A stretch of DNA of 64,000 nt. It comes from Malacoraja senta (taxonomy: Eukaryota). The stretch covers positions 269,390,001-269,454,000 of the forward strand of contig CM075977.1 of the NCBI GenBank assembly GCA_038087875.1, read 5' to 3'. The notes under the pieces were generated by a model. It searched no databases and had not been told where the DNA came from. It saw only the letters and a list, made by a program, of their open reading frames with translations. Positions 1 to 54,753 of the stretch are shown in pieces. The translations under genes and the position numbers were made by a program. The stretch's first letter is position 1; every line of letters begins with the position of its first letter.

Positions 1-1535
1 TAATGGTGCATCCAAGAGCTTCATGTAAGCAAAGAATTTCATTATTTCCTTGTGTATCTGACAATAATGAATCTCTTATCTGTTCATTTTGATTTTGATA
101 TTGGCCATTGTGCACTGCCATTAATTACCCTAAGTTTGAGTATAAAACACATTCATTTTACTTCGGAGTCACGTGAGTGATTCCGTGAAGAAGCCCCGCC
201 AGTCCGCATGCGCATCATATCGTCGCTCGCATGGTGAAGCACCGGACTGGCAGGCGTCGCTCCTGCCAGCGGTAAGTTTAAACTACAGGTAAGTTTTGTT
301 TTCTTACCTGGTTTTGATTTTCTTGCAGGAACCTCTTTTTACAGAGGTTTTCCTGCTCGATATTTTCGCGAAGTCCGACGAGGGAAACCGGCTATGGGCT
401 GTGGGGAGACCCCGGTTCCGACTGCGGAAGCGGGTAGCCGGCGAATGTCGGGTTCGCGATCCCAGTCACTGACAATGCGGTCAGTGACTTCCAGACGCTG
501 TGGTTCCCATGGAGAGGTAAATCCAGCAGTAATGCGGCTCCCAGACCGCAGTAGTCCCCAGGATATGGGTTAAAACCAACCAGAACGGGCAGCCCTATGG
601 ACTCGGACGAGTCGGGCCGGGGGGGTTCCCCTCTGGTAATGTATAAAAATTTGGAGGTTGGCCAGGATGGAGCTCCTAATGGAGTGGATGCTCCACCTAG
701 ATACACTCCAAGAGCAGGAGTTGTGTCAGCACGGGCCTATGGGAGAGCCCGCGCCAGCAGCGCCTTGGACAGGGCTGCTTAATGTTGATGCCGAGTCTGT
801 GGCAGCGCCGGCCTATGGGAGAGCCCTCGCCAGCAGCTCTTTGGCCAGGGCTGCTTAATGTCTCCCTCTTGGAGGAGGAGAGCATGTCGGGTCAGTGTAA
901 ATCTGACGCCGAGTCTGAGGGTATAGCCGTGGAGCATACCCCAAGGGATGAAGGGCACGTGTCACATTCCTGGCAGCAAGGTTTGCCATCCCAACACAAT
1001 CACGGGAAAAAATGTTCCATCCTGGTATAGGTCTGTTGGAAGGGCCATATCAGAGCAGGTAACTTCAGGGGCCTGCGGCAGCAACTGTTTGAGGGCTGCC
1101 TATGATTTGCCCTCTTTGAGGAGGGGAGTGCGAGTGGTCAGTATGTAACTGACTTTAAATTCTAAAGTATGTCTGTGGAACATACTGGAGCACATGCATG
1201 CCGGCAGTGAACAGCGCTATCAGGGGGACATTAGAGCCAGCCACCGAATCTTCTATTCAGGTAAGACCTATTCAACAGGCAAAACCTGGAGTTCGAAGCA
1301 AAAGCTGTCGGACCAATCAAGGCCAACGACGAGCAATGCTTCATCGTTTTGGCGACAACGCACCCAACGTCTTCATCGGCAGTAAGCGGTTCACTGAAGC
1401 TGGTGGCAGCATGAAAGCTGGGCAGAGGTTCCACGCACTCTACCAGTTCTACTCTACAACTAAGGGACCACTTACAAGTTGGTAATATTTTCACTTGGTT
1501 GTACAATACACAAATGGTTAAGACATTGTCATCTA

Positions 1536-2120
1536 CTTGACTACTGTAACTCTCTTCTCTTTGGAATCAATTCCAGCAACATCAACCGACTCCAACTGGT
1601 CCAGAATGCAGCCGCCCGACTCATTACCCATACCAAATCCTGGCACCACATCACCCCAGTTCTCAAAGAACTTCACTGACTTCCCATTTCCCACCGGATC
1701 ATCTACAAAATCCTGGTCCTCACCTACAAAGCCCTCAACAACTTGGCCCCCCCTTATCTCACTGACCTCCTCTCCCCCTACCAACCCTCACGGTCCCTCA
1801 GATCCACATCAGCTCGTCTCCTCTCCACTCCGAAATCAAACCTCTGCACTTTTGGAGGCAGAGCCTTCTCCTGGGCAGCTCCCAGGCTCTGGAATTCCCT
1901 CCCACAACTGATCCGAAATTCTGAGTCCATCACCATCTTCCAGTCCCGCCTCAAGACCCATCTCTTCACCTCTGCATACCCTTAGTCCCATGTTCCCCTC
2001 CCCTTTGCATCTCTGTCTTACTGCTCTATTTTGTTTTGTTTATTCTTGACTCTCAATGTAAAGCGACTTTGAGTCCTGAAAAGCGCTATATAAATAAAAT
2101 GTATTATTATTATTATTATT
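1536..2120 (+). mobile_element. 5'-truncated L2-clade LINE inserted in DIRS copy 1
   Basis: LDYCNSLL..RLQLVQNAAAR..HITPVL..RAFS.AAPRLWNSLP..LKTHLF RT C-terminus, 3' tail AAAGCGCTATATAAATAAA-(TAT)n, short ACTT repeat at both junctions. Confidence 0.9.
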
Positions 2121-2175
2121 ACTTAGAGGCATCTAATCATGTAAAACTGGACAATACTAGCATTCCAAGCAGGTT

Positions 2176-2445
2176 TGGAATTGGGCCAGAATTGTGTTTT
2201 AAGGCAGGCTCAGTATTTTGGCCAGGATTGCCTTCGAGACATGCTCGGAAATATGGGCAGAGTTGTCTTTCGAGGCAGGCTCAGAATTGTGGCCAGAATT
2301 GTCTTTTGAGACAGGCTCAGAATTATGGCCAGAGTTGTCTTTTAAGACAGGTCAGAATTATCAGATAGGCTCAGTATTATGGCCAGGATTGTCTTGCAAG
2401 ACAGGCTCAGAAATCGGGCCAGAGTTGTCGTTCGAGGCAGGCACG
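2176..2445. repeat. 36-bp minisatellite, ~7 degenerate units
   Basis: Unit approximately AGGCAGGCTCAGAATTGTGGCCAGAATTGTCTTTTG in tandem, no spacers. Confidence 0.85.
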
Positions 2446-2579
2446 AAATGATGGCAGGCGTGGCCTGTTCATTATGAAAGGTGGAGATATTTGAAATTAT
2501 CAGGAGAAGGCAATTGCTATGATGAGGCAATAATAACAGTATGATGACAGTAATGCATTGCAAAGTGGACTACTCAGAG

Positions 2580-4660
2580 TTCAAAAACACTTGTTATGTC
2601 TTTACTGGATGAGATTTTAACGCTGTATTTTGCTAAAATCAACTGTTTCAGTCTCAAACTATATTTGAGAAATTGGGCTCCTCTATCCAGTTAAAATTAA
2701 GTTGTTACCAAAGAGACTTGTTGGTCATTGGGATTTACCTTTAGCTATTAATTAGCCGATGACTCTGCCCTGGGCAACAGATTGGAGTTAATAGAAACCT
2801 GTAACAGCCTTGTTGTTATAAAGCAGCTTTCTATTCATCAAGACTAATTGGCAATATAGTAGCTGTGATTCAGCTGTGCACACGTGCCATGTAGGTCATT
2901 GTTAACACACCAATGGTATTACCAGCTGAAGCTACCAAAGTCACAATGATGGACAAACAGTATTCAGCATTGCTCCAGTAGTTTGGTCAGTAAAAATTTC
3001 AGTTATATTGCAAACTGATGCTAAGGGCTCTAACATGGAAAATTGCGAATGTCATCTCTAGTATGGAGGTGAAGGAGATTTGCATGAGTTACCAATTCTT
3101 CAGTTATAGGTATCAACTATCTATAGACCCTAGGTGCATTCTATGCATTCAAGTGATTGAGCGAATATGCATAATCTGCATGCTCAACTTCAAGTTGATA
3201 CACTATGATGGTGGCATATGTTAGTCACATGGGTGCAATCAAGTAAAAGTATCCTGTAATAGTTTATCTGATCTCATTTGCCACTGGTGTATCATCAAGT
3301 ACAGATCAATGACAACACAGAATGGGTGTTGGATCACACAGTATTTATGAAATTCTGGTTCGATGGAACACCAAATATCGATATGTTGGTTTCAAGCGTA
3401 TTCACCGGTTGCAAAAATATGTGGCATACAGTGGCGAAAGATACATTCTCGCTACAAGAAGGAGGAATGGTCTTTTATGTCTTCCTCCATTTTGCCTCAT
3501 CAGTCGGGTCTTCAAATAAAGTCATCAAGATCCCGCTTTAGGTTTTTCCTACTGTCTGATTGGCCTATGCAGCTCTGATTCCAGATTTTGTCGGGAATAA
3601 TAATACAACCTTATACGATTATTCTAAACGTAAACTTTGCTGGTTCAGCCTGTGGCTCGGGAAATCAGCCTTTGCATGATAAAATCTATTTATGACTTGC
3701 AGATTCTGAATGGACTGCCCCTATGGCTTGGGTTGTCACACCTATCCTTGTATGTGTTCACTCCAGAGTGCTGGGATAGCACCAAAAAAGCAGTACATTT
3801 CCTCTTCAGGAGATGGGAAGCGTTTTGTTTAATGCTAATATTACATTTGATACGGTACAGATTACTGACTCTTGGACTTCATTTTTTAAATGGTCTTTTG
3901 ACAATAATTAAGTTATAGGGCCATTAACTGTGCCAACGTGACTTCCCATCATATTTGCTGCAGCAAACGGGACCCACTCTGTCGGGTTTCACACCCGGAT
4001 ATTGAGTTTGTAAAGGATATCTTTAACACAATTTCTCCCAGGCCAAGTACAATGCAGTATGGGATATTGACATTGTATTAACATTAACTCACCAGGGGGC
4101 TCCAGCTACATCCTTGGCTTTGGCCGGCTCTCATGAGGTAGTTATCCTCATGGCGCTGGTTTCAGCACAACGGGTTTCAGTCGCTACATAATTGCGACTG
4201 GACAGGATGATTACATCTGTAAATAATATATATAAATGTTTATGATTTAATTAAGCAGAGTAGAAGGGGCGTCAGGTCTCAAACTAGTTTCATGGCATAC
4301 CCAGGGACCTTCGGTTATGTGAGGGCACACATATACAACAATACGTCAAGGTCACCAAGAGCCTTCGAGGCTCTGAACTAGCAATGCTTGTTAGTTACAA
4401 AAAACTTTATAAGAAGGTATCCGTTCAGACCATCTCCAGGTGATAAAATGGGGTTTGATTTATGCAGGAGTAGATACTGATTTCTAAATCTCACTCCACC
4501 AGGGCTGCTACAACATCAGCAGCAAGGGTTATTTACGTTCCGCTGGACCATATCCTAACGGCTGCAGCATGGTCAAACGAATGAATTTTCCAAACATTTT
4601 ATAATAACCATTGCCAGACCAGGGGTATTTGCCAACTCTATTTTAGGTTCTATTTATAGT
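2580..4660 (+). pseudogene. Decayed DIRS RT-RH-MT and tyrosine recombinase remnants (copy 1)
   Basis: Colinear similarity to the copy 3 ORFs with many stops and frameshifts. Confidence 0.8.
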
Positions 4661-4836
4661 TTCCCTCTGGATGAGAAGGGTTACTATTATTATTACTTGT
4701 TCATTAAACAGCATCAGCATGTTTTAAATCTATGTCATGTCTGTATACATTATGAATGTTTCCCTCATCTGTCAATGAAGCAGTTGTGATTGTGTAGACT
4801 CGTCTCTCACGGCATGAAATCACAAAGCTTTGAAAT

Positions 4837-4948
4837 CTTCACGGAATCACTCACGTGACTCCGAAGTAAAATAGTAAGATTAAATGAGAACTTACCAGTT
4901 TGAAGTTTGAACTTTATTTTATGAGGAGTTACGATGAGCGATTACGTG
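4837..4948 (+). repeat. ICR of DIRS copy 1
   Basis: Reverse complement of left terminus 156-190 joined to reverse complement of right extension 5094-5170. Confidence 0.93.
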
Positions 4949-5364
4949 CCCACCGCTACCAACCCTCTCGCATAAAGATCACTCCGTAGTTCTAGTCTCT
5001 CTAAGTCTTACTATGTTACTTTGACTACTGTTATCTGTGATTTCACACCGCTGCTTTGAAGATTGATGCGCATGCGGACTGGCGGGGCTTCTTCACGTAA
5101 TCGCTCATCGTAACTCCTCATAAAATAAAGATCAATCTTCAAACTGGTAAGTTCTCGTTTAATCTTACTATTTTACTTCGGAGTCACGTGAGTGACTATG
5201 TGAAGAACCCGCCAGCACGCATGCGCGTCATATCGTCTAACACATTGCGCAGCGACTGGCTGGAAGGCGCTTTGCTCCTCCACCGGTAAGTTTAAAAAAG
5301 GCCTGCAGGTAGGTTTTCTTATTCTGAGGTCGTTTTTTGTTTTGGGGAATTTCTTTACAGAACG

Positions 5365-6606
5365 GTGATTTCCAAAGTAATGGAAAAATTGAGGGCCAAG
5401 TCTAAGCGGGCTGCGGCGAAACTGGCTGCGGAGGACCGCGGGAGTGCGGGCAGTCAGCAGCGGCTGACTTCACCACCTGGGTCGCTGACTGTGCAGTCAG
5501 TAACCTCCGACTTGGTTCCTGCAGAATCCGCAGTGGTTCCCCAGGTTGGGGTTAAAGCCAAATGTAAGTCGGTTAGGCCTGTGGACTCGGACGAGTCGGG
5601 CCGGAAAGATTCACCGCCTGCGGCAGGTAGTGCCCGTGGGCGTTTATCGCGCATGGAGCGGTTAATGGAGCAAATGCTCCAACGTGACATACTCCTGCAG
5701 TCAGAGTTTTGTCAGCATGGGCCTCCTCGGACACCCACGGCAGCGCCTAGTACAGGACTGCACAATGTCTCCCTCTCCTCGGAGGGGAGCATAAGGAGTC
5801 AGTTCTGGGCTGGCTCTGAAGTCGGGGATTTGGCTGAAGTGTGCTTGGGGGTGCATGAAGCTCAGAAACTGCTCGGCATGGTCTCCAAATTCGCGATACC
5901 CTCACAATCAGGAGAGCCTTTACAAGAACAGCTGGCTGCTAGTATTGATTACCTTACATCAAACCAGCTGCAGGAGCAGGTAATGACCGACACAGCTGCT
6001 AAATATTTAGCACCTGCGAACTGTGCTTCTTTGAATGTTCCTGCGGTGAATAATTTGATTTGGGGATACATTGGTGGTGGCATCAGAGCCCAAGAAGTCA
6101 AGATCCAAAGAATCCTCAAGCTGCTGGCTTCGGGTATAACGGCGTTTGCCAGATCCATAGATGGAACATTGTTGTCGGATGAGCAGCAGGATGCGCTGGC
6201 ACTTTTATGCAATGCTCAGTTTGAGATCAATTGCTTTAGGGAGAGTGTGATCCGACCTGCCCTGAATCCCAAATTTGCGGGGTTGTGCAAAGTCAGCAAC
6301 ACTCAGCCACCAAATTTACTATTCAGGGAGAACCTGTCAAAACAGGTCAAGGACCTGGATGAGGAGGCTAAGGCTGTCAGGCTAATAAAGGCGCCGTCAA
6401 CCGGCAAGACCTCGCAACTTCGGCGGCAGCACCCCTATGCATCCACCAACAGAATACGTTATCCGGAGGCGGGTGAAAGCTCGAAGGCCGTACATTCTGG
6501 ACAAAGGTCTTTTTTAGGCCAAGGTCCAGAACGGCCTTCTTGGAAAATGCGCCATCCCCACATTCCAGCTCCTCTACCCCCCAGGACTCGGGGACGGAAG
6601 AAGTAA
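5365..6606 (+). CDS. gag: DIRS ORF1 gag-like protein (open; likely ATG at 5380)
   Basis: 413-aa ORF in the ORF1 position, homologous to ORF1 of copies 3-5 (IRPALNPKFAGLC; LLF..NL.K.VKD). Confidence 0.85.
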   Translation: MISKVMEKLRAKSKRAAAKLAAEDRGSAGSQQRLTSPPGSLTVQSVTSDLVPAESAVVPQVGVKAKCKSVRPVDSDESGRKDSPPAAGSARGRLSRMERLMEQMLQRDILLQSEFCQHGPPRTPTAAPSTGLHNVSLSSEGSIRSQFWAGSEVGDLAEVCLGVHEAQKLLGMVSKFAIPSQSGEPLQEQLAASIDYLTSNQLQEQVMTDTAAKYLAPANCASLNVPAVNNLIWGYIGGGIRAQEVKIQRILKLLASGITAFARSIDGTLLSDEQQDALALLCNAQFEINCFRESVIRPALNPKFAGLCKVSNTQPPNLLFRENLSKQVKDLDEEAKAVRLIKAPSTGKTSQLRRQHPYASTNRIRYPEAGESSKAVHSGQRSFLGQGPERPSWKMRHPHIPAPLPPRTRGRKK

Positions 6607-6626
6607 ACAAAAACCCATTGGTAACA

Positions 6627-8555
6627 ATGGAGGTAAGTGGGTCTGGTTTCTTCCGGAACATGGTGTGTGTAAATTGTTCACAAGTTGGTGATTACACTTG
6701 TTTTGGAATGCATGGAGTTCAATAACATCTGACCCATTTATACTGCACAGTATTCAGGGGTATAAAATTGAGTTTCTTCATAATTCCTTTCCACCAGTCC
6801 AGCATGCACCTAACTGAACGTTTGTGCTTTCACAGCAGGAAAGTTTGGATGGGCATGCAGACATTTTGAGATTACATTCAAAAGGGATAATTGAGAAGTC
6901 CCGACATGACTCTCATGAGTTTGTATCTAATATTTCTACAAGGAAAATGAAAGATGGTGGATGCCGCATCATCATTGATTTGACGCAGCTAAATACATTT
7001 GTGCAGTATATACATTTTAAAATGGAAACTTTTGTTACTGCCAAACATTTGGTTTCCAAAGGATACTTTATGGCTTGCATCGACCTCAAAGATGCATACT
7101 ATTCAGTACCTATGCACAGGGATCACCGAAGGTATCTTAAATTTAACTGGATAGAGCAGCTGTGGCAGTTTAAGGCGTTGCCTAATGGGTTAACATCAGC
7201 CCCCAGATTGTTTACTAAAATAGTAAAACCGGCACTTGCGTTTCTCAGAACACAGAAACATATTGTCATGGCATACCTGGATGATATCTTAATTATTGGG
7301 AAAACTGGAATTAGCTAAATTAGCTGTTTCAGCCACCAAGCTCTTGTTTGAGAAATTGGGGTTTCTCAACCATCCAGTTAAATCTAAGTTGATACCATCC
7401 ACAGTTATGGATTATTTAGGGTTCACTATTAACTCTGCTCACATGTCTGTGACTTTGCCTGGGGGCAAGGCAGCAGAGTTAATAGAGGCCTGTAACAGCC
7501 TTGTTGTCGTTAGTCAACCATCTATTCGACAAGTAGCCAGGGTGATTGGCAAGATAGTGGCTGCATTTCCAGCCGCACAATTTGGACCTTTGCATTATCA
7601 AAATGTACAGCAGGCAAAGGTGCAAGCACTTAAAAATCATGCTGGTCACTTTGACAGGCCAATGCGGTTACCAGTTAAAGCTATTTCTGAATTGCAATGG
7701 TGGATACTAAACATTCGGCATTGTTCTAATACCATTGTAGTCAGCAGTCCTTCAGTCGTTTTACAGACTGATGCTAGCGCTCAAGGTTGGGGTGCTACTA
7801 ATACCATCTCTAGTTGCGGTGGCAGATGGGATGCACATGAATCATCTTTGCTTTAGACACTTGGTATTAATTATTTAGAGATGTTGGGTGCATTCTATGG
7901 GGTAAGGGCTTACTGCACAAACATGCACCATCTGCATGTTCATCTTCAGATTGACAACACCACTGCGGTGGCATATATCAATCATATGGGTGGAATTAAG
8001 TTGATATCTTGTGATAATCTGGCTAACACTATTTGGCACTGGTGCATCAAAAGAAATATTTGTGTATCAGCTACTTACCTTCCAGGTAAGCTCAATACAG
8101 TGGCGGACACCAGGGCACGAAAGTTCAATGACAACACCGAATGGATGTTGAACCACAATGTGTTTGCCGACATTGTAGCTCGGTATGGAACGCCGGATAT
8201 CGATCTGTTCGCATCCAGGATTAATCACCAGCTACCAACATATGTTGCATGGGAGCCAGACCCTGGGGCAGTGGTGATGGATGCATTCTCGCTACACTGG
8301 GGAGGATTGTTTTTCTATGCATTTCCTCCCTTCTGCCTCATCAGTCGGGTCTTGCGAAAAATTCAACAAGACTCCGCGTCGGGTACTTTGGTAGTACCCG
8401 ACTGGCCTACTCAGCAATGGTTCCCTGTGGTTCTGGGTATGGTATCAGAACCATGTATGTCCATTTCCAAACACCCTGATTTATTGGTTCATCCTGTGAC
8501 AGGCGAGAGTCACCCGTGCCATGACCGGATAAATTTGTTAATTTGCAGAGTCTGA
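6627..8555 (+). pseudogene. pol: DIRS RT-RNase H-methyltransferase ORF, frameshifted/stopped (copy 2)
   Basis: Split ORFs 6824-7318, 7296-7856, 7881-8555 carrying DLKDAYY, LPNGL..APR, YLDD, TDAS..GWG, DNTTAVAY, DLFAS, YAFPPF. Confidence 0.93.
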
Positions 8556-11234: not shown

Positions 11235-12722
11235 TGGTGTCAGAGTTTATGAGCTCACCCTTCAATTGATTATATTGTTTTTATCTTGGTCTATTTTTTT
11301 AACTGCGGTTATGGCTGCTGCTCTCAGGAAGCCAGAGGTCTTGGTGTTTGATGCAGACCGTGCAGAGCGATGGCGTGTATTCGAGGAAGATTTCTCAATC
11401 TACATTGATGCAGCGTATCCAGCTGCGACTCCTGCTCTCCGTGCTTCAATCCTCCTTAACTTAGCAGGCACTGAAGCTGCTCGACGTGCCAGAAGATTTC
11501 ACTATGCACCGGTTGTGTTGACGCTAATGGTGTACAGATTCCAGTAGAGTCTGACCGTGATCCTGAATGCCTCCTACGTAAATTCCGACAACTATGTGAG
11601 TTACAAATTAATGTGAGCATTGAACGACATACATTTTTCTCAATGTGTCAAAAACAAGGAGAACCGGTCAAGCTATATGTCAGTGCACTGAAGCATGTCG
11701 CTAGTCGATGCGATTTTAGAGAAATTGAAGATAGCTTGATAAGAGACCGCTTAATACATGGCATATTGAATGATAAACTACGCGATGAATTGTTACGTGA
11801 AGTTGGCCTGACCTTAGAAGCTGTCGAAAACCACTGTCGTATAGCTGAGTTAACCATCTTCTGCTGCTCATGAAGTCAATGCAGCCAGTGTGACTAATCA
11901 AATTACTGCTCGCCCATTCCAGGGGCCAGTTAACAGCCCAAGATGGATTTCTAATTGCTTTAATTGTGGCGTTTCACACACTGCAGTTCGCAATCAGTGC
12001 CCTGCGTATGGAAAACTCTGCAGGTTTTGCAATAAAATTTTGTAAATTGCTGCCGGTCACGAAACAGATTTCAAACGAGACAGTCAGTCAACTCGTTAAA
12101 CCAGGATGAATATCCAAGCTCCGAGTTCACACAAACAGATGGGGACAGCACAGAGATTAATGTGCATGCGTTGTCTGGTTCAGCATCCAAACTCGATCCC
12201 AAGGTTGCTCATTAATGGCAAAACTTTTTATCTTAAAGTTGATAGCGGGGCTAGGTGCAATGCTATTTCGCTGGCTGTCTTCCAACTGCTGCAAAACACA
12301 GAAACTCTAACTCAGACGACTGCATCACTTATCTCCTTTAATGGTGCACCACTACACCCTATCGGCCAAGTAAAGTTACGTTGCCGTCTCAACGCGCGTG
12401 ACCACATTGTGGATTTCTACGTGGTATGTGAGAAAGTATCCATACTGGGTGCTGATGCATGCCATGGGTTTGATTTCCTTCAGCCCTTCAGTCTGTCCAT
12501 TGACTATAGGCTGTGATTTTACACATCACATTTTACTTCGGCGTCACGTGAGTGACTTCGTGAAGAACCCGCTCAGTGCGCAGGCGCGGCATTACGCCAG
12601 CAGTGCAACAGCGGCGGCAGCTGGAGGAAGGCGCTCCGGCTGCAGTTTAAAAGACGGACCGTTGGGTAAGTATGCTGAAGTTATCTAACGGAGAAGGAGA
12701 GTTAAAGACGTGTACTTACGAA

Positions 12723-13973
12723 ATGAGTTCACAAAAGAAAAGACTCTCGAAGAGAACTGCCCCCAGCTCATCTCCACCAGAGGAGCGTTCAATCGCAGGG
12801 GGACAGCAACAGGCGGCAGGAACGCTCATAGAGCGCTCCGCTATCCCCGAGACCGAGCCGAGCCCAGTCCCGCTAATGCCTGCACAGCGGACAGGGAGGA
12901 AAGCCATGAGAAAAAGTATCCGGCCGGTCATTTCTGATTCGTCGGAGGGGGACATGTCTCCACCGAAACGGAGGAGAGACAGCCGCCAGAGCTTACAACA
13001 GCTCTTGGAGCAGATGCTCCAGCGGGATGCACAGAAGGAGCGTTCCCGCGGAGGTAGGTCAGGCACCTCCTCCACAGTGTCTTGTGCGCTGCCCTCTGCT
13101 CCCTCATTACTGGAGGCTAGCATTGGTGACCAGGGTTGGGCTGGTCTGGAACAGGGGCTGGCGGACGAATTCGGCGGTATGCAAGGGGTGCAGGAGCAGG
13201 AAGAGCTGCTGGGTGTCGTGGACCGCTATGTAGCAACCCCACGTGCTGGAAGACCGCTGGAACCAAAAATGGCGGCCAGCATAAATCATCTATCAAATAA
13301 GCCCTTGCAGGAGAAGGTACTGCTAGAGGCGCTTGACCTTTACACAGCACCAGAGAACTGTGAGGCCCTCAGAGTGAAGACTGTGAACAGCCAGATCTGA
13401 GGGCACGTGGGGTCAAACATGCGTAACCATGAAGTCAAGCTACAGCGGATCCTGAGGCTCCTGACGTCGGCCATAACAACCTTTGCTCGTTCTGTGGATA
13501 GTACGGAGATGGATACGTGCCAGCAGGATGTGCTGGCACTGATGTGCAACACACAATTTGAAATCAACAATCTCCGGCGGGAAAACATAAGACCTGCCCT
13601 CAATCCCAAATTTGCTGGGTTGTGCAGAGCCCCAGCTGCAGAGACGGATGCTCTGTTATTTGGGAAAGACCTCAATAAAAAACTGAGGGACATGGAGGAA
13701 GCAGCGAAAACTTTCGGCCTCATGAGGGCAGGCCCCGGGACGAGCAAACCAAGAGCTGCAATACCCAAGCGGCAGCACCCCATGGCATCCACCAGTCTAC
13801 GTCCTCAATATGGGACTGGTGAAAGCTCGGGGACCGCATTTTATCCCCAAAGATCTTTTTTAGATCAGGGCCCACAGCGGACCCCATGGAAAATGCGCCA
13901 CCCCCCAACATCGCCAGCACGTCAGACAAACAAACCGTACAAAAACCTCAGGAAACAAAAGAAACACCAATAA
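12723..13973 (+). pseudogene. gag: DIRS gag-like ORF1 with a single nonsense codon (TGA 13398-13400)
   Basis: ORFs 12672-13400 and 13407-13973 are in the same frame. Copies 2, 4 and 5 have TGG (Trp) at the stop position. Confidence 0.88.
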
Positions 13974-15910
13974 CCATGGAGGTAGGTGGGTCTGGTTCCT
14001 GCCAGCATATAGATAATAAGGGTGCTTTACTAACAGGGGGGAGATTACACTTGTTTAAAGAAGCATGGGTTACTGTCACGAGTGACAAGTATATACTCAA
14101 CAGCATTAGTGGATATAAAATTCAGTTCATGTCAGAACAATCGCCGCCAGTTCAGCATTGGCCCCAAAGGGTATTTTCTCCCTCCGTCAAAGAGAAACGT
14201 GAGGGACAAGCTGAACTGGTGAGACTTATCACAAAGGGGGTCATCGAAAAGACCAAACATGAACCTTTGGAATTTGTATCAAATATATTCACTAAAACCA
14301 AAAAAGATGGGGGATGTCGCATCCTCATCGACTTAAGATCACTAAATAAGTTTGTTCAGTATATACATTTCAAAATGGAAACATTTGTTACTGCCAAACA
14401 ACTGATTTCCAAAGGATATTTCATGGCAAGCATTGATCTTAAAGATGCGTACTATTCAGTCCCCATACACAAAGATCATTGCAGGTACCTAAAATTTATC
14501 TGGTTGGGGCAGCTGTGGCAGTACAAAGCATTGCCCAATGGGCTAACTTCGGCCCCAAGATTATTTACCAAAATATTGAAAATAGCCATGGCAATACTAA
14601 GAAAACAAAAACATATTGTCATGGCATATTTGGATGATATTCTGATAGTAGGGAAAACGAAGGAATTGGCTGTGGCAGCAGTATCAGCTACAAAACAGCT
14701 CCTCGAAACTCTGGGGTTCATCATACATCCAGATAAATCTAAGTTAAAGCCATCCACTATCATGGACTACCTGGGCTTCACAATTAACTCAGTCCATATG
14801 ACTGTTACCTTGCCAAAGGAAAAAATGGTTGCATTAGCACAATCATGCAACAATTTAATGGTCAACAAACGACCAACTATTCGACAAGTAGCAAGAGTGA
14901 TTGGGAAAATGGTAGCAGCATTTCCGGCTACACAATTCGGACCTTTGCACTATCAAAATTTACAAAGAGCAAAGGTACAGGCACTAAAACGACATACAGG
15001 TCACTATGATCGTGTCATGAAATTACCCACTGAAGCAATATCAGAGCTACAGTGGTGGGCAGAAAATGTTTGGCATAGTGTCAGCTCTATCATTATCACT
15101 AACCCTACTTTAGTTCTTCAAACAGATGCCAGTGCTCAAGGCTGGGGAGCAACTAACTCCATATCCAGCACAGGTGGTAGATGGACTAACCTAGAGTCAT
15201 CGTTACTACTGACACTGGGCATTAACTATCTAGAGATGTTGGGAGCCTTTTATGGTTTAAAAGCATATGTATCTACTATGCAGCACTTGCATGTTCGGTT
15301 ACAAATAGATAATACTACGGTGGTGGCTTATATTAACCATATGGGCGGCATAAAATCACTATCATGCGACAAATTGGTCAATGTGATTTGGCAATGGTGT
15401 GTCGAAAGACATATTTGGCTATCAGCTACTTATCTACCAGGTAAGCTAAACAAAGTGGCAGACACCAGGTCACGCAAATTCAATGATAACATAGAATGGA
15501 TGTTAAACCCTAAAGTATTTGCTAAAGTTATTAAGCAGTATGGAACGCCAGATATTGATTTATTTGCATCACGACTAAATCACCAGTTACCTATGTATGT
15601 CGCTTGGGAACCAGACCCAGAGGCAGCAGCGCTAGATGCCTTCACGCTGGATTGGGGAAAGTTCTTCTTCTATGCTTTCCCTCCCTTCTGCCTCATCAGT
15701 CGGGTACTTCGCAAAATACAGATGGACTCTGCTTCTGGAATTTTGATGGTGCCCGACTGGCCCACACAGCCATGGTTCCCGGTTCTACATGACATGGTGG
15801 TTGAGTCACCAATGGTCTTTCCCAGTGATCCAGGATTATTAACTCACCCAGTAACAGGCATAAGCCACCCATGTCATGAGAAGATTAAACTCCTGGGTTG
15901 CAGGTTTTGA
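13886..15910 (+). CDS. pol: DIRS reverse transcriptase-RNase H-DNA N6-adenine methyltransferase-like polyprotein (start 13886 or Kozak ATG 13976)
   Basis: 674-aa ORF with IDLKDAYY, LPNGLTSAPR, YLDD (RT); TDASAQGWG, INYLE, DNTTVVAY, N.VAD..SR (RH); DLFAS, DAF..DW, YAFPPF (MT). Confidence 0.95.
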   Translation: MENAPPPNIASTSDKQTVQKPQETKETPITMEVGGSGSCQHIDNKGALLTGGRLHLFKEAWVTVTSDKYILNSISGYKIQFMSEQSPPVQHWPQRVFSPSVKEKREGQAELVRLITKGVIEKTKHEPLEFVSNIFTKTKKDGGCRILIDLRSLNKFVQYIHFKMETFVTAKQLISKGYFMASIDLKDAYYSVPIHKDHCRYLKFIWLGQLWQYKALPNGLTSAPRLFTKILKIAMAILRKQKHIVMAYLDDILIVGKTKELAVAAVSATKQLLETLGFIIHPDKSKLKPSTIMDYLGFTINSVHMTVTLPKEKMVALAQSCNNLMVNKRPTIRQVARVIGKMVAAFPATQFGPLHYQNLQRAKVQALKRHTGHYDRVMKLPTEAISELQWWAENVWHSVSSIIITNPTLVLQTDASAQGWGATNSISSTGGRWTNLESSLLLTLGINYLEMLGAFYGLKAYVSTMQHLHVRLQIDNTTVVAYINHMGGIKSLSCDKLVNVIWQWCVERHIWLSATYLPGKLNKVADTRSRKFNDNIEWMLNPKVFAKVIKQYGTPDIDLFASRLNHQLPMYVAWEPDPEAAALDAFTLDWGKFFFYAFPPFCLISRVLRKIQMDSASGILMVPDWPTQPWFPVLHDMVVESPMVFPSDPGLLTHPVTGISHPCHEKIKLLGCRF

Positions 15911-16881
15911 ATAGACCTTATCTGGAACTGGGATTGTCCGAACGTACCATCACCACCATGTCGGCATCCCTTCGAACATCCACCAAGAGGCAGTACTTAA
16001 GCAGCATAAGAAAATGGGAGAAGTACTGCCAGGAAACAGGAACAACGTATGCAACAGCCACAGCCACCAACGTACTGGAGTTCCTGGCCCATCTACACCA
16101 TGATGAAGGGATTAGTTACAGTGCCATCAACACAGCGCGGAGTGCTCTTTCTGCGTATCTCAAACCAGCAGGACAACAGGCAATGGGATCACATCCACTG
16201 GTGGTAAAACTGATGAAGGGTATTTATAATATCAAGCCCCCTAAACCCAGGTATACCCATATTTGGGATATCAGTGTGGTCCTGACATATCTCAGGAAAT
16301 GGCCACCAGCCAGATCCCTCAGCCTCGAGCAATCTACATTAAAGACGCTCATGTTGATGGCACTCGTATCCGCTCAGAGGGTTCAGTCACTACACAAGTT
16401 AAGGCTGGACAACATGGTGACCACCCCAGATCAGATCACATTCATCATACAGGGTCTGGTGAAGCAAAGCAGGCCAGGAACAGCGAATCCACTGGTGGTA
16501 TTCCGGGCCTACCCACAAGAGCCACGGTTGTGTGTCGTGACCCATCTACAACATTATATAGACACAACCCACAATATCAGAGGGAGTGAAAAAGCCTTAT
16601 GGGTCAGCCAGAAGAAACCTCATGGCCGGGTAACGAGCCAAACCATTGCAAGATGGCTCAAACAGGTGCTGAAGGCTGCCGGAATAGATACTAATACATT
16701 TAAATCTCATTCCACTAGGGCAGCATCTACATCAACGGCGGAAAGAATGGACGTACCGGTTGACCATATTCTGAATACAGCAGGATGGTCGAGGGAAACG
16801 ACATTCAGAACTTTTTATAATAAGCCGTTGATGAAACCAGATTTATTTGCAGAGAAAATATTAGAAGCTGCAAATATATAA
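15898..16881 (+). CDS. DIRS tyrosine recombinase (phage integrase family); 5' end may be supplied by splicing at 15904
   Basis: 327-aa ORF with SAQRVQSL (R), KQSR (K), HSTRAA (HxxR), AGWS (W) and FRTFYNKP (Y) catalytic motifs. Confidence 0.94.
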   Translation: MQVLNRPYLELGLSERTITTMSASLRTSTKRQYLSSIRKWEKYCQETGTTYATATATNVLEFLAHLHHDEGISYSAINTARSALSAYLKPAGQQAMGSHPLVVKLMKGIYNIKPPKPRYTHIWDISVVLTYLRKWPPARSLSLEQSTLKTLMLMALVSAQRVQSLHKLRLDNMVTTPDQITFIIQGLVKQSRPGTANPLVVFRAYPQEPRLCVVTHLQHYIDTTHNIRGSEKALWVSQKKPHGRVTSQTIARWLKQVLKAAGIDTNTFKSHSTRAASTSTAERMDVPVDHILNTAGWSRETTFRTFYNKPLMKPDLFAEKILEAANI

Positions 16882-17049
16882 TTTAAAGCCCGGGGGAGCT
16901 ATTTAATTTTGTTATTGTTAATAAATACCTTTTTTGTTTCTTGAGAAACGGATTCATTGGTTGATTACGATAACACTTCCTCCCTCAAGAACTTCAGCAG
17001 TGAGTGAAATAAAACTGTTACACGGTTTGAAATCACAGAGCTTTGAAAT

Positions 17050-17161
17050 CTTCACGAAGTCACTCACGTGACTCCGAAGTAAAATAGTAAGATTAAACGA
17101 GAACTTACCAGTTTGAAGTTTGATCTGTATTTTATGAGGAGTTACGATGAGGGATTACGTG
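17050..17161 (+). repeat. ICR of DIRS copy 3
   Basis: Complementary to 12531-12565 (1 mismatch) and to 17310-17386 (exact). Confidence 0.95.
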
Positions 17162-18589
17162 CCCTCCGCTCCCACCCTCATTATATGGATCAAACTAATA
17201 AATTGATGTCTCCTTTTCTTTACTATGTTTACTTCAAATACCTGTGTCTTTCTGTGATTCCACACCGCTGCTTGGAAGTATGCCGCGCCTGCGCACTGAG
17301 CGGGTTCTTCACGTAATCCCTCATCGTAACTCCTCATAAAATACAGATCAAACTTCAAACTGGTAAGTTCTCGTTTAATCTTACTATTTTAACACAATAC
17401 AAGGATTTGTTTAACGACGAGCTAGGCAGGTTGCCTGTGAGATACACAATTACTATTGACCCCGAGGCAATCCCAGTTGTTCGTCCAGCTAACAGGATTC
17501 CCCATGCTATGCGGGATCGTGTACAAAGTGAACTTAACAGAATGGTGGCTCTTGGTGTGATTATTCCGGTAACTGAACCCTTAGACTGGGTCTCCTCAAT
17601 GGTTGTCGCTACTAAGAAGAATAAGATGAGATACAGATTTGTATTAACCCCAAGGACTTAAAACTGAAAGTTGAAATTACTGTTACATAACTAGAGTAAT
17701 AGCTGTGTTGTTTTTCTACACATCTTCATTTCTCTCGAACCTAAAAAGTTAGCAAGATTTTAATACGTGCCACAATATTAAAACAGTCTAACTGGGAATA
17801 CGTTTGCTGGTTCTGATAGAGCTGCAAGATGCAGACACAGTTTCAATTGTGATTGCATGTTCCCCACCTCAATCAAGAAAAGATTGATGATAAATGTTCT
17901 GGAATCTAAAGAAAGAACATGTTCTGGAGAACTCAAACTCAACACAGAGACACAAACACGTTCAGAATCTCCAAAGATACATTGGGTGATAAATTCTGGA
18001 GCCCATTTAAGGGGATCACCGTTACGTGATCCTTGCACATCACAATGCCTGCAGCTCATCATCCTGGAAGTAAATCAACACCAAGCAGAGCCATTGAATT
18101 CATCCAGCAGCTTGTTTCTGAAATGAGCAGTTGGAATTTCAGGTTGAGACCCTTCAACTGGACTGAAATCCTTGAGGGGTGATTGCTTGTATAAGGAGAT
18201 GAGGTGGGAGGGGCAAGAGCAGGGACAAGCAGCAGATGGATTCAGCTGAGGAAAGGTGCATTGGTCGATGAAGTCAGGTGGGGGAGGGAGGGAGGGGTGG
18301 AGATGGTGACATAAGCTAGGAAGTGATTCAAACAAGTAACAAGGGGCTGCAGATCATGAAATCTGATGGGAATAGTGGTTGGAGTGTGGGAGATGGGGCT
18401 AGCAGAAGGGAATATTGGGGGGAAAGGAGCTTTCCACATTATATATATATATATGTTTGTGGGTGATGGACCAAGGGTGTGCATGTAGAAGCTGGGTGAG
18501 AGTGGGGAGCATGTTTGTTGGAAAGAAGGCTATGTGTGCCTTTAATAATTAATTCATTACATGTCTGTTCTTTGTAAAAAGGTTATGAA

Positions 18590-27365: not shown

Positions 27366-29333
27366 TTAACTGAGGGGAAACTCTCTCAGGAAAAGTAAGA
27401 GCTTCACACGGATATATGTCTCCTTTAAAAAATATATTTTTAAGGAACCACTTCTCTGCTGCACGCGAGTGAAATAATATTCCCATACCTTCCATGTAAA
27501 CCTGCAAATAAATAAGTGTGACCTCTGAAGGATGTGAACAAAGTAGCAGGATCAGGTGGTGTACCTAGTCGATGCAGAATAAAGGGAACAGCATGTGATA
27601 GTCTCTAATGATTTCTTGACCAAAAGAATGTGCACAGCACCTAATTGCATTGACTGTTGTGCAGAGAGCCTCCATCATTAGTCGCCCATTGTGCTTTTCA
27701 GACTGTTCAATTGGTCGAGTAACTTCAACTGAATATCACGACTCGAGTAAGTTCAAGTTCTCTCATTGCTGATTCAGAAAATACTTCAATTACTTGACTT
27801 AACTGTCAATGCAACTTTTTTTCTCTTGCATACAGATCTGGGAATTGCACTGCGTTGTCTTTTAGTTTAATTTAGTTTAGTTTAGTTTAGTTTAGAGATA
27901 CAGTGCAGAAACAGGCCCTTCGGCCCACCGAGTCCACGCCGACCTGCGATCCCTGCACACTAACACTATCCTACACACACACTAGGGACAATTTTACTTC
28001 GGAGTCACGTGAGTGACTACGTGAAGAACCCCGCCAGTGCGCCTGCGCGTCATTACGTCAGACGCCTTGACGCAAACGGACGTGACTCCTCCAGTGGTTT
28101 GTAGTTTTTCATCTACAAGGTAAGTAGAAACTTTTTTCATGTTTTCCAGGTCCGTTTACTGTGGGTCTATGGGGATTTTTTCCACAGACGCCATGGAAAA
28201 AAACGGGCAGGGGGAAGAGGCGAGCGACACAGCCGACAGAAGTCGGGAAAGTCAGGAGTCTGCGGTTAGAGACCAACCGCCTCTAAACCCCGGTACAGTC
28301 GCCAGCGGTGAGCATAGCAACTGTGGACCTGGGGCTGGTGAAAACACAGTCAGCGCCTGTCGGGCAAAAGACAAAGTTTAAATCCCAACGGCCCACGGAG
28401 GGAGTCCCAGGCAATGGAAGTAGCTCCAGGGCTAGATACTGCTTTCGATCGTATTGCCCAAATAGAAAGCCTTTTACATAGGCTGTTGGAGCAAAGTTCA
28501 CTCAGGGAGGAGTGTACTGAAAGCCATGCTGCTGGAAGCAGCTCAAACAGCTCCTGGTACAGGGCTAGATACTGCTTTCGAGCGTATTGCCCAAATAGAA
28601 AGCCTTTTCCATAGGCTGTTGGAGCAAAGTTCACTCAGGAAGGAGTGTACTGTAATCCAAGCTGCAGGAAGCAGCTTAACAGCACCTGGCTCAGGGCTGA
28701 TGGAATGCACCCTCAGGAATGAGGAGCGTGCTACGGGTCATGAGATTTCAGACCCCGACTCTGACGGTGAGGATGTACAAGGCGATGAACGGCAGCTGCC
28801 AGATGTTCCACCCCTGGCAGTAGGATTCGCTGCCCCATCAGGGTCAGGAGAGCCATTAGGAGAAGAACTGGCCTCCTTAATAAATTACTTGGTTTACTAT
28901 CAGCTGGAACAGCAGGAGATGGATGAGACTGCAAGAAAGCAGGAGACCCCAAGTAACTGTGGGTTGCTGAAAGCAGCAGCAGTGAACCAAATTATCTGGA
29001 ATCACTTGCAGAGAATATTAAAGCTGCTGGGTTCTGGAATAACTGCTTTTACCAGAATAGCAGGTAACAGCCAAGAGATGACGAAGTTGCATCAGGAAGC
29101 ACTGGGGTTGCTATGCAGCACCCACTTCGAGATCAATTATCTGAGGAATGTGCTATAGGGCCTACTATGAATCCGAAATTCGCAGCACTCTGCAAACCAA
29201 GTAATATACAATTACGGATCCTAGACCAGGACCAAGTCGCTCATCAACGCAGGGACGTAGCTGGCGGCCTGCAGCGGGAGTAAGGACCAGTGGTGGTGCT
29301 TCAGGGAGAATCCAGGGATCTCAGAATACTCAA

Positions 29334-42361: not shown

Positions 42362-42880
42362 TGGGGCAGGGGTAGTATGTAATATTGGAGTTGGTTTGCT
42401 CCTTCCATTCATTACACTTGATTTCTGCACGCCACTAGCAAAGAGGTTTAAAGTTTCACTTCTCATTAAAATACTGCTTCTTCACCTTGAACGATCATGG
42501 GTCAGGGATTTCCACAGGCCAGTGGAGATGTTGCAATATTTCAAAGCTTTAAGAATATCCTTGAACCATGATCTATGTCTTCCCGGAAATCCTTGGAGCT
42601 TGGAATTGATGCCCTTATTTGGAAAGCTGATGTTGGACATGCAAAAGACATGGAGCTGATTGGTGTCAGTGAAGCAATGATACTGGACCTGATGGTGGAT
42701 GCTGGCATTAGTTTGCTTGCACTGTGAGTGGTTTGGGAGGATTTTGCAGTTTAGTTTAGTTTAGAGATACAGCATGGAAACAGGCCCTTTGGCCCACCGA
42801 GTCTGCGCCAACCTGCGATCCCCACACACTTACACCATCCAGCACACACTAGGGGACCATTTACAATTTTACCAGTTTTT
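42362..42880 (+). repeat. Left copy of the ~520-bp direct repeat flanking the L1 (includes a SINE 3' fragment)
   Basis: Near-identical to 45910-46435. Confidence 0.95.
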
Positions 42881-45800: not shown

Positions 45801-45910
45801 TGGGCAATTTTAATAATTCTCCTGTATCTGCTCTAATTTTATGAATTATTTTTTCCCCCTCATTTTTCATAGCTGACGAGCTAATAGTTTTTGTGGTTTG
45901 TCTCCAAACT
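42881..45910 (-). mobile_element. 5'-truncated L1-clade LINE (disrupted ORF2, 3'UTR, poly-A)
   Basis: IHPDQTGF, SLDAEKAFD, GCRQGCPLSPLLF, LYADD, KYLGI, F.W...RI..GGL motifs; T-tracts at 42876-42910. Confidence 0.95.
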
Positions 45911-46435
45911 GGGGCAGGGGTAGTATGTAATATTGGAGTTGGTTTGCTCCTTCCATTCATTACACTTGATTTCTGCACGCCACTAGCAAAGAGGTTTAAG
46001 TTTCACTTCTCATTAAAATACTGCTTCTTCACCTTGAACGATCATGGGTCAGGGATTTCCACAGGCCAGTGGAGATGTTGCAATATTTCAAAGCTTTAAG
46101 AATATCCTTGAACCATGATCTATGTCTTCCCGGAAATCCTTTGCCCACATGGAGCTTGGAATTGATGCCCTTATTTGGAAACCTGATGTTGGACATGCAA
46201 AAGACATGGAGCTGATTGGTGTCAGTGAAGCAATGATACTGGACCTGATGGTGGATGCTGGCATTAGTTTGCTTGCACTGTGAGTGGTTTGGGAGGATTT
46301 TGGCAGTTTAGTTTAGTTTAGAGATACAGCATGGAAACAGGCCCTTTGGCCCACCGAGTCTGCGCAACCTGCGATCCCCACACACTTACACCATCCAGCA
46401 CACACTAGGGACCATTTACAATTTTACCAGTTTTT
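45910..46435 (+). repeat. Right copy of the ~520-bp direct repeat, ending at TTTTT/AA
   Basis: Near-identical to 42362-42880. Confidence 0.95.
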
Positions 46436-52900: not shown

Positions 52901-54753
52901 GAAAACTGAATAGTTCTCCCAAGAACATGCTGAATGTGTAAATCACAATTTGGATTGAAATCCATTCGAAACCTTTGAATAACACTCTGTATAAACAGAG
53001 CTAAGGTAATTTGCTTCCATTCATCCCAGAAACGGATGTAATGTACCCCAGATTTAAGTTGTGTCACGTTTGATATGTGCACCCGAGAACCAGGCCCACC
53101 TACCTCCTTGGTACCTGGTGGATGACATTGTCCCCGGCTCCTTGGCGGGAAAGCCAAGGTTTGACCATGTTCCCGCTTCGTTTGTCGGGGTACTTTCTTT
53201 TTTGGAAAACTTGCCGACTGCCGGTGGCTTGATCAAGCCCATTGTCTTTGCCTCGTCATCCATGTCCTTGACACTCTTGGCGAGGTCCTCTCCGAAGAGT
53301 AGGTTGGCCGGCTGTATGTTGCTAGGCTGGAAAAATACTGCAATCTTGGAATTAATGGTGGGCCGAATGGCACTTTCCCTGAGACAATTTATCTCAAAAA
53401 TGGGTGCTACAAAGCAACCCTAGTACCTCTTGCTGCGTCTCCGACACATGCCCTCCATCCACCGTTCTCGCGAATGCCGTGATTCCTGAGCCAAGTAATT
53501 TCAGGATTCTCTGCAGCTTCATCTCCTGGGCACTGCACGCCCACGCCCATCTGGCTCCATATCATCCGGTTCACTGCTGGCACCTTCAGCAACTCGCAGT
53601 TACCCCGTTTCTTGGTGATTCCAGACTCTGACTGGACAGCGAATCGTACTGCCAGAGATGGGAACTCTGACAACAGCCATCTTCGCTTTCCCAGTGGCAT
53701 TCCATACTCTGACGGGACAGCGAATCGTGCTGCCAGAGAATGGACCTCTGACAACGGCCATTCTTCGCTATTCAACAAAGTCTCCATCAGAGTCGGGTCA
53801 GAACTGAGCTGACCCTATCGTGGAGGCCAGCTCTTCTCCCAGTGGCACTCCATACTCTGACTGGACAGCGAATCGTGCTGCCAGAGAATGGACCTCTGAC
53901 AACGGCCGTTCTTCGCTAATTTCCAAGTCTCCGTCAGAGTCGGGGTCAGACCTTAGCTGACCCTCTGCACTCACCTCATGCATGAGGGTGCTTTAAGCAG
54001 CCCTCTACCAGGTGCTGCCGGTGTGGCCTTTCTGCAGCCTACCGCCCACACGACTCCTCCCCCCCGGAGTGTGCGTTTCTGGAGCAACCTCTGGATGAGG
54101 TGCTCCATTTGGGAGAACCTTTTTAAAATGTCTCCAGCCCCGTACAGGCTCGTTGTGGCCCGACTCAGTTGAGTCCAAGGGCCTCCCAGACTTCCCCGTG
54201 CCTTACACCCGACTGGCGTTGGCTTTGGTGGTTTTTAGCACTGAGTCTGAAGTCGCCCCGCTCCCGGTCGGCGACTGTGCAGGGGTACGAGGCAGCCGCT
54301 GACAGACCGCATTCCCGCGGCTCTCCTATGCTTTACCTGTGGCTGCCCTCCCCCTGGTCATCTTCCTCATGGTGCTGCATGTAATAAAAAACAGAGCACC
54401 ACAAAAAGAACTTTCCCTCCAGCTAAGTTCCCCACTTAGCTGGAGCTTTAAACTATAAAAGTACTTTAAAAGTACTTGCTACAGGAGGAGCTCTGTCCTC
54501 CCCTGCTCGTCTTCACCAAGGTGCTGCCTGTGACAAAACACAGAGCACAGCACCACAGTAAAGGAAACTGTTTTACTCCAACTAAGTTTCTCACTTAGCT
54601 GGAGCTTTAAAACACTTTAAAATACTCTAAAAGTACTTACCACAGGAGGAGCTCTTTCCTCCCGCTGTCCGTGCGCCAATGCGACCGACATAATGACGCG
54701 CATGCGCCCTGACGGGTCTTCTTCACGTAGTCACAAACGTGACTCCGAAGTAA
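49979..54753 (-). mobile_element. DIRS1-like retrotransposon, copy 5 (coding-defective)
   Basis: Left terminus at 54753, ICR 50203-50314, right ITR/extension 49979-50086. Decayed gag (~54370-53110), pol (~53109-51453) and YR (~51459-50490). Confidence 0.93.

Follow-up and report, generated by a model that had tools for sequence, protein, structure and literature searches.

A predicted −1 frameshift and a predicted pol-skipping splice in DIRS1-like retrotransposons of Malacoraja senta

Five DIRS1-like retrotransposon copies, each from a different family, were found in a 64,000-nt stretch of Malacoraja senta DNA, here called the window (assembly GCA_038087875.1, contig CM075977.1, positions 269,390,001 to 269,454,000 of the forward strand). 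The element at 12532-17390, copy 3, is a DIRS1-like retrotransposon, and its notable feature, judged from comparison with its relatives, is a probable frameshift at the end of gag that is coupled to a predicted splice skipping pol. Its family is young and high-copy (40 of 40 scored genome matches are 99-100% identical, with 1621 candidates), and the left-end motif of DIRS1 elements has 7324 matches genome-wide. Copy 3 is laid out as follows, with inverted terminal repeats (ITRs), an internal complementary region (ICR) and three open reading frames (ORFs), which include reverse transcriptase (RT) and tyrosine recombinase (YR) parts.

12532..17390, + strand: DIRS1-like retrotransposon copy 3, 4.86 kb; termini and ICR taken from the sequence
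12532..12593, + strand: left terminus and left ITR, complementary to ICR 17050-17084 plus right ITR 17280-17312
12723..13973, + strand: gag ORF, named by position and by homology among copies
13976..15910, + strand: pol ORF with RT, RNase H-like and methyltransferase-like parts, in a frame that is open from 13823
15904..16881, + strand: YR exon, with its first ATG at 15958 and a frame that is closed 5 codons 5' of the exon
17050..17161, + strand: ICR, taken from the sequence
17280..17390, + strand: right ITR and terminus, taken from the sequence

Positions 12560-12593 are complementary to 17280-17312, and the left-terminal motif recurs on the minus strand at 17082, near the 3' end as it does in 5/5 copies. 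In Pfam searches the pol ORF matches RVT_1 (E=4.5e-22) and the recombinase matches Phage_integrase (E=2e-9) along with SAM-like domains. Copy 3 pol has no Pfam methyltransferase match, a domain (PF05869) carried by its full-length homologues P0122 and P0127; for gag, which holds one premature stop (13398-13400), no Pfam match was found. Among named homologues, a skate protein is the closest. An upstream ATG at 12672, inside the predicted leader intron described below, was rejected as the gag start because many sister copies lack it or have it in another frame. The ITRs, the ICR, the TTT termini and the slightly overlapping gag, pol and recombinase ORFs are the same as in the DIRS1-like elements of the excerpted literature (PMC3266345, PMC7192593, PMC9210276, PMC3783388). 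For comparison, 60 elements were chosen by the left-end motif and 40 by the gag-end motif, and 80 metagenome loci served as distant relatives; three rows were dropped (L045, without the terminal motif; L097, in which the motif was not located; and L186, incomplete).

The end of gag carries a conserved motif, TCTTTTTTAG, that a first-pass annotation had taken for a splice acceptor. As annotated, it ends at 6517 and 13863, the sole two occurrences in the window, about 110 nt 5' of the pol ATG. In copy 3 it spans 13854-13863, with the acceptor-like AG ending at 13863, and it contains a heptamer in gag phase (T at 13856, TTT at 13857-13859, TTA at 13860-13862).

13856..13862, + strand: T TTT TTA heptamer of copy 3, predicted −1 frameshift site (X XXY YYZ in gag phase)
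13856..13975, + strand: dual-coded overlap of copy 3, with the gag C-terminus in frame 0 and a Pol linker in frame −1
6510..6516, + strand: heptamer of copy 2, followed by an open −1 frame as far as the pol ATG (6627)

A synonymously degenerate pattern of the motif found 405 matches in the genome, and 94 of the first 100 read TCT TTT TTA G, so the Phe-Leu codons hardly vary synonymously; the codons next to the motif differ between families while the motif itself stays fixed. This invariance fits an acceptor and a slippery heptamer alike and thus does not tell them apart. The reading frames are more informative in this respect. Among 47 heptamer-bearing copies in 14 groups (one without pol), the −1 frame has no stop between the heptamer and the pol Met in 12/13 pol-bearing groups (67-88% identity) and in 35/41 copies with a located donor, whereas a −1 stop is present in 33/36 equal windows upstream of the heptamer. 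The spacing is 122, 125, 128 or 146 nt, the differences being multiples of three. The −1-frame synonymous share is 0.27 after the heptamer versus 0.06 in gag-only sequence, and in disjoint family pairs (6 and 4) the −1-frame synonymous count is 14/46 versus 2/49 in the gag-only control (p=7e-4; +1 frame, p=0.70). These substitution patterns indicate that selection acts on the protein of the −1 frame directly 3' of the heptamer and 5' of any AUG. A spliced RT mRNA would leave the overlap untranslated in the −1 frame, and the selection therefore separates the heptamer from an acceptor.

The presence of the heptamer also goes with the frame of pol. Both a gag anchor and a donor were located in 61 of 103 elements (42 were left out); pol lies in the −1 frame in 27/33 of these copies with the heptamer, and gag and pol are in frame in 24/28 without it. 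In the metagenome relatives, an in-phase TTTTTTA (8) or AAAAAAC (7) is found in 15/25 groups, versus 2 and 4 in the other phases, and pol is in the −1 frame in 14/18 groups with a gag match. AAAAAAC contains no AG and so cannot serve as an acceptor. It is also the A AAA AAC listed, in the part of PMC5009743 consulted, among the most shifty heptamers and as a classic shift site. The T TTT TTA of copy 3 is identical to the U UUU UUA of HIV-1 gag-pol, likewise in phase and with pol in the −1 frame (PMC3561942, in excerpt).

According to the first-pass annotation, TTTTTTAG would be a 3' splice site that joins the leader to the end of gag (12665-13864) and so gives an RT mRNA, from which further removal of pol would give a recombinase mRNA starting at the pol ATG. 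The nucleotide-level invariance of the motif would be expected of such a site, the copy 3 family keeps a leader donor without a clear near acceptor, and the pol ATG has a good context in 12/12 heptamer families. Downstream of the AG, the first AUG shares the frame of pol in the copy 3 family and two others; however, it is out of frame in the remaining 9/12. The acceptor context is poor, with a competing AG 10-11 nt upstream in 11/12 families (AG-free in 1/12), no YTRAY branch motif, and a T-run that is almost never C-varied, unlike the leader acceptors. The would-be 5' UTR is selected as −1-frame protein, elements with gag and pol in frame lack the motif, AAAAAAC is present in 7 relative groups, and no joined genomic copy was found with an exact junction probe. 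Thus frame, −1 selection, in-frame families, AAAAAAC and acceptor context all favour the heptamer, and gag-skipping through 13863 appears very doubtful. TCTTTTTTAG probably behaves as a −1 frameshift heptamer and not as a gag-skipping acceptor, its acceptor-like AG arising from the A of the heptamer together with a −1-frame Arg codon. From these comparisons, T TTT TTA is very likely to be a frameshift site.

Several observations weigh against a frameshift here. In the overlap the +1 frame, too, has almost no stops, and after synonymous shuffling the −1 frame stays open with a per-family P of 0.10-0.52, so openness alone is a weak argument. No strong fold that could act as a stimulator was found 3' of the heptamer (folding z-scores −1.7 to +1.0), and a search that included pseudoknots to 57 nt gave no helix of at least 4 pairs at 83% conservation. 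One hairpin is conserved (8 pairs, bulged, one pair covarying); it starts only 2 nt after the heptamer, where 7-8 nt is expected. A bare heptamer slips at about 0.1% according to the consulted part of PMC3561942. Families with gag and pol in frame would make no free Gag, and the counts of families are not independent, since the families share ancestry. Finally, the pol Met has a favourable start context in 12/12 heptamer families, which would not be needed if pol is reached by a slip.

That context would instead be expected if ribosomes restarted at the pol ATG, by termination-reinitiation or leaky scanning, giving free Pol from unspliced and recombinase from spliced RNA; this route may also accompany a frameshift. 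TAACCATGG, which reads TAA-CC-ATGG, does lie at 13971 as previously annotated, and an ATG in good context, with a few conserved preceding bases, is found in 12/12 heptamer families and two in-frame families. However, the gap from stop to ATG is 2 nt only in the copy 3 family and 17-23 nt in the 11 others (11/12 families), a Met is missing from the pol start of several large in-frame families, and the heptamer and the −1-frame selection would be left unexplained. As the general route to pol, restarting is therefore improbable, and the predicted −1 frameshift is preferred. The codons just before the pol Met (6620-6632 and homologues) are fixed at the nucleotide level, and the Val codon is GTA in 11/12 families.

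Some copies depart from the common pattern at the end of gag. The tree of copies requires 2 changes of heptamer state; as it is unrooted, no direction is claimed for gain or loss. A degenerate clade (155-5180 in the window; L033, L035, L073, L081 and L084) is well supported in this tree and has heavily decayed frames; in L033, L073 and L081, TCTTTCAG replaces the T-run, so that the heptamer is lost and YAG is kept. In the copy 3 family, L037 and L039 have one extra base just 5' of the heptamer and both lack an ATG homologous to 12723; with the extra base, gag of L039 reads in frame into pol. L104, L105, L106 and L111 keep the leader signals and the heptamer and have unrelated sequence where pol belongs, and are probably non-autonomous. 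In contigs of a related organism (run X3) the T-run at 13856 is 2 bases shorter at a summed depth of 18425/41464, which may reflect a variant family or homopolymer noise.

A second signal is found at the start of pol, where a donor-like site and an acceptor-like site at the start of the recombinase exon bound a predicted intron.

13982..15903, + strand: predicted pol-removing intron of copy 3, 1922 nt; donor GAG/GTAGGT and acceptor TTGCAG/, both at codon boundaries
6633..8548, + strand: predicted pol-removing intron of copy 2, GAG/GTAAGT to TTGCAG/
3702, + strand: end of the copy 1 recombinase acceptor
29346 and 31143, + strand: copy 4 pol donor and recombinase acceptor
53103 and 51460, − strand: copy 5 pol donor and recombinase acceptor

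Removal of the 1922 nt at 13982-15903 would join the start of pol in frame to a recombinase that has no start of its own. With a rule that did not require AG, the recombinase boundary reads YAG in 71/73 copies (65 CAG, 6 TAG, 2 other). The recombinase frame is closed at most 8 codons upstream in 61/73 copies and has no upstream ATG in 66/73. Conserved N-terminal residues precede the first Met, the copy 3 ATG at 15958 being 18 codons into the conserved region, and in one family (4/4 copies) a TAG stop is itself the acceptor and no Met occurs in the first 26 recombinase codons. An AG-free run with a median of 39 nt lies 5' of the acceptor. Codon choice is fixed at both ends: the Arg codon at the acceptor is AGR in 15/15 groups versus 20/58 elsewhere, and the Val codon at the donor is GTA in 61/61 versus 40/122 elsewhere (GT itself being required by the search rule). 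In the next motif similar to the pol donor, the Val codon is GTT in 25/29. Metagenome relatives have an acceptor-like site in phase in 38/41 groups versus 2 and 7 out of phase (in position windows chosen after viewing) and a phase-0 donor in 11/25 groups versus 4 and 1 out of phase, and 12 of their recombinase frames open exactly at a TAG acceptor.

These sites might also be by-products of Glu-Val and Cys-Arg codons and of base composition, without functional splicing, the recombinase starting at its own downstream or non-AUG codon. Pro-Phe-Ser codons can indeed produce YAG in relatives, a Met is present near the recombinase start in 44/69 homologues of other animals (a count biased by gene calling), and intron-less genomic copies were not found with four exact junction probes (0 matches each). 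Such by-products would not account for a codon choice at donor and acceptor that is fixed beyond background, for a donor that keeps GTA while the next codon varies between Gly, Ser and Arg (GTAAGT included), for the whole family with a TAG stop right before a conserved recombinase helix and no nearby Met, or for leader signals that sit in non-coding, diverged sequence. An absence of splicing thus seems unlikely.

The Pro-Phe-Ser codons and the lack of intron-less copies also count against the pol-removing intron itself, as do four other points: the acceptor tract is only 57% pyrimidine (mean 0.57); no consistent branch point was found at 18-40 nt, YTRAY lying mostly at −8 or −16; none of 20 longer homologues was a Gag-recombinase fusion lacking RT; and only 73 of 103 elements yielded a located boundary, 30 being left out. 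On balance, splicing of 13982-15903 is predicted as likely.

A second frameshift, from pol to recombinase, was considered and rejected, as there is no shared slippery site at the boundary and a stop lies directly upstream in some families. Three other leads were rejected as well: the skate gene model P0002 joins the C-terminus of pol to the recombinase, a join other than the predicted one; metagenome L158 (1333-1555) lacks most of pol, has the rest in frame with the recombinase and is not joined at the donor; and the L195/L189 gap lies outside the ORFs. A pol-to-recombinase frameshift was proposed for Ngaro elements by Poulter and Butler 2015, as quoted in the excerpted part of PMC13003380. 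The likeness is that the recombinase ORF, there as here, overlaps the end of pol in the −1 frame and has no obvious start. In the present elements, however, splicing from the donor at the start of pol fits better, given the missing slippery site at the overlap and the stop that can directly precede the exon.

The third signal is a short predicted intron in the leader, upstream of gag.

12666..12671, + strand: leader 5' donor GTAAGT of copy 3 (predicted), intact in 27/30 sister loci
12760..12780, + strand: candidate replacement leader acceptor of the copy 3 family (uncertain); 115-nt intron, next in-frame ATG at 12876
5286..5360, + strand: predicted leader intron of copy 2; donors 5286 and 5309, acceptor 5360, gag ATG 5380
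272..344, + strand: predicted leader intron of copy 1, a degenerate copy; donors 272 and 289
28120..28187, + strand: predicted leader intron of copy 4, from a heptamer-less family in which gag and pol share a frame
54528..54640, − strand: predicted leader intron of copy 5, without heptamer

The GTAAGT donors reported in the first-pass annotation are present (272, 289, 5286, 12666, 28120 and 54640 on the minus strand), as are the CAG acceptors before gag, ending at 344, 5360, 28187 and 54528 (minus strand) and giving introns of 73, 75, 68 and 113 nt. The donors had been placed just inside the left ITR; they do occur in all copies, about 70 nt further in than the ITR's inner end. The window as a whole holds no excess of GTAAGT (19 on the + and 17 on the − strand versus 19.7 expected per strand). 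Across 86 leaders in 27 groups, with thresholds set after the sequences were viewed, a donor lies 95-175 nt from the left end in 24/27 groups versus 5.6 in shuffles and 0 on the opposite strand. In 17/27 groups the donor is accompanied by an acceptor that is rich in pyrimidines and free of AG, in most cases directly ahead of the gag ATG; the corresponding numbers are 1.6 for shuffles and 0 for the opposite strand. As these signals lie in non-coding sequence, a real leader intron is likely, and from the comparison its splicing in most families is predicted as likely, to the same degree as that of the pol intron. The copy 3 family itself fits poorly: the homologous acceptor position before ATG 12723 has no AG, and the partner of donor 12666 is unexplained by the model. 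The acceptor ending at 12780 is the only site in this family that passes the acceptor rule. In one sub-family the donor reads GTGAGT. Tandem leader donors 17-25 nt apart are seen in many families (272/289, 5286/5309), and the intron may then be about 45-60 nt. Introns have reportedly been noted by Goodwin and Poulter in some fungal YR elements.

Of the three splicing tiers proposed in the first-pass annotation, the comparisons thus support the leader intron and the removal of pol to reach the recombinase, and not the tier from the leader to the end of gag. The motifs, the frames and their conservation are features of the DNA, and a series of expression steps can be proposed from their comparison. 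Unspliced RNA would be the template for new copies, and in most families a short intron in the 5'-UTR leader would be removed from the mRNA. On leader-spliced RNA, ribosomes that stop at the end of gag would make Gag and those that slip by −1 on T TTT TTA (13856-13862) would make Gag-Pol. Optional removal of 13982-15903 would put the recombinase exon in place of pol; such doubly spliced RNA would again yield Gag, and the same slip would then give Gag-recombinase. In families without the heptamer, gag would be read straight into the same donor and the fusions made directly. With moderate confidence, one transcript is thus predicted to yield Gag, Gag-Pol and Gag-recombinase through splicing and a −1 frameshift.

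The lack of intron-less genomic copies also weighs against this scheme, all the more as one clade has 2137 retained leader donors versus 0 intron-less copies; either copying strictly selects unspliced RNA or splicing is rare. Contigs from four sequencing runs, which look genomic and have no bearing on expression, placed 0/15 joints (of 24) on a predicted splice pair. There is precedent for copying of unspliced RNA. In Dictyostelium DIRS-1, an intron introduced after the left repeat and ahead of ORF1 is partly retained in cDNA (PMC7192593, in excerpt), and barley BARE has separate RNA pools for translation and copying (PMC3735527, in excerpt).

The chances are about even that a wider rule holds, in which animal DIRS1 elements share a code of two switches. 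A −1 frameshift or an in-frame fusion at the end of gag would feed one donor that chooses between Gag-Pol and Gag-recombinase. The retained leader intron would mark the RNA to be copied, the recombinase would enter the particle as a Gag fusion, like retroviral integrase, and the acceptor would have moved between in-phase positions across phyla.

Parts of this scheme have parallels, cited here from excerpts of the sources. In the Ty1/Copia elements EVD of Arabidopsis (PMC5580714) and BARE of barley (PMC3735527), alternative splicing sets the mix of proteins as proposed here; however, the splice there yields Gag alone, whereas here it would swap the enzymes behind Gag. Compared with the gag-pol frameshifts of HIV-1 and of LTR retrotransposons, no strong stem-loop was found 7-8 nt downstream of the heptamer, and the slip would feed two products, Pol or recombinase. 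Penelope-like elements (PMC4209133) also have genomic copies with spliceosomal introns, although their RT and integration system are unrelated. The excerpted papers on DIRS1-like elements (PMC3266345, PMC7192593, PMC9210276, PMC3783388) give no expression route, whereas a heptamer and two introns are predicted here. The string 'splic' does not occur in the consulted parts of PMC3266345, PMC3783388 and PMC9210276, and the matches to it and to related terms in the available parts of PMC7192593, PMC6681497, PMC9341512 and bioRxiv 2026.05.21.726589 concern other matters. 'DIRS' was not found in 300,000 of the 449,034 characters of a frameshifting review. A literature search on DIRS with splicing, frameshift or introns gave no description of such an expression scheme.

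Several other features were seen at and around the copies. The left repeat of copy 3 (12545-12600) holds CACGTG, GCGCAGGCGC and TTACG motifs, which resemble E-box, NRF1 and CRE sites, and is a likely promoter. Copy 3 seems to be inserted in a pol gene, as a protease-like frame ends to its left (12100-12516) and an RT-like frame resumes to its right (17317-17661); these interrupted frames are assumed to be gypsy-like pol. A 520-bp inverted repeat (42362-42880 and 45910-46435, 97% identical) surrounds a minus-strand LINE-type RT fragment. At 61846-63057 there is a 403-aa ORF with a weak match to retroviral-type protease, probably a gypsy gag-pro.

DIRS1 elements are abundant, yet the papers, as excerpted, give three overlapping ORFs without a route by which pol and recombinase are translated. 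If the proposed scheme is true, the N-termini of annotated recombinase and pol ORFs are wrong, and DIRS elements that are engineered or traced rely on signals for splicing and slipping. A further class of retroelements would then join the known users of −1 frameshifting and of intron retention in the copied RNA. The model can be tested cheaply and exactly at one junction and one heptamer, and, if true, it would explain how three proteins are made from one RNA in a common jumping gene.

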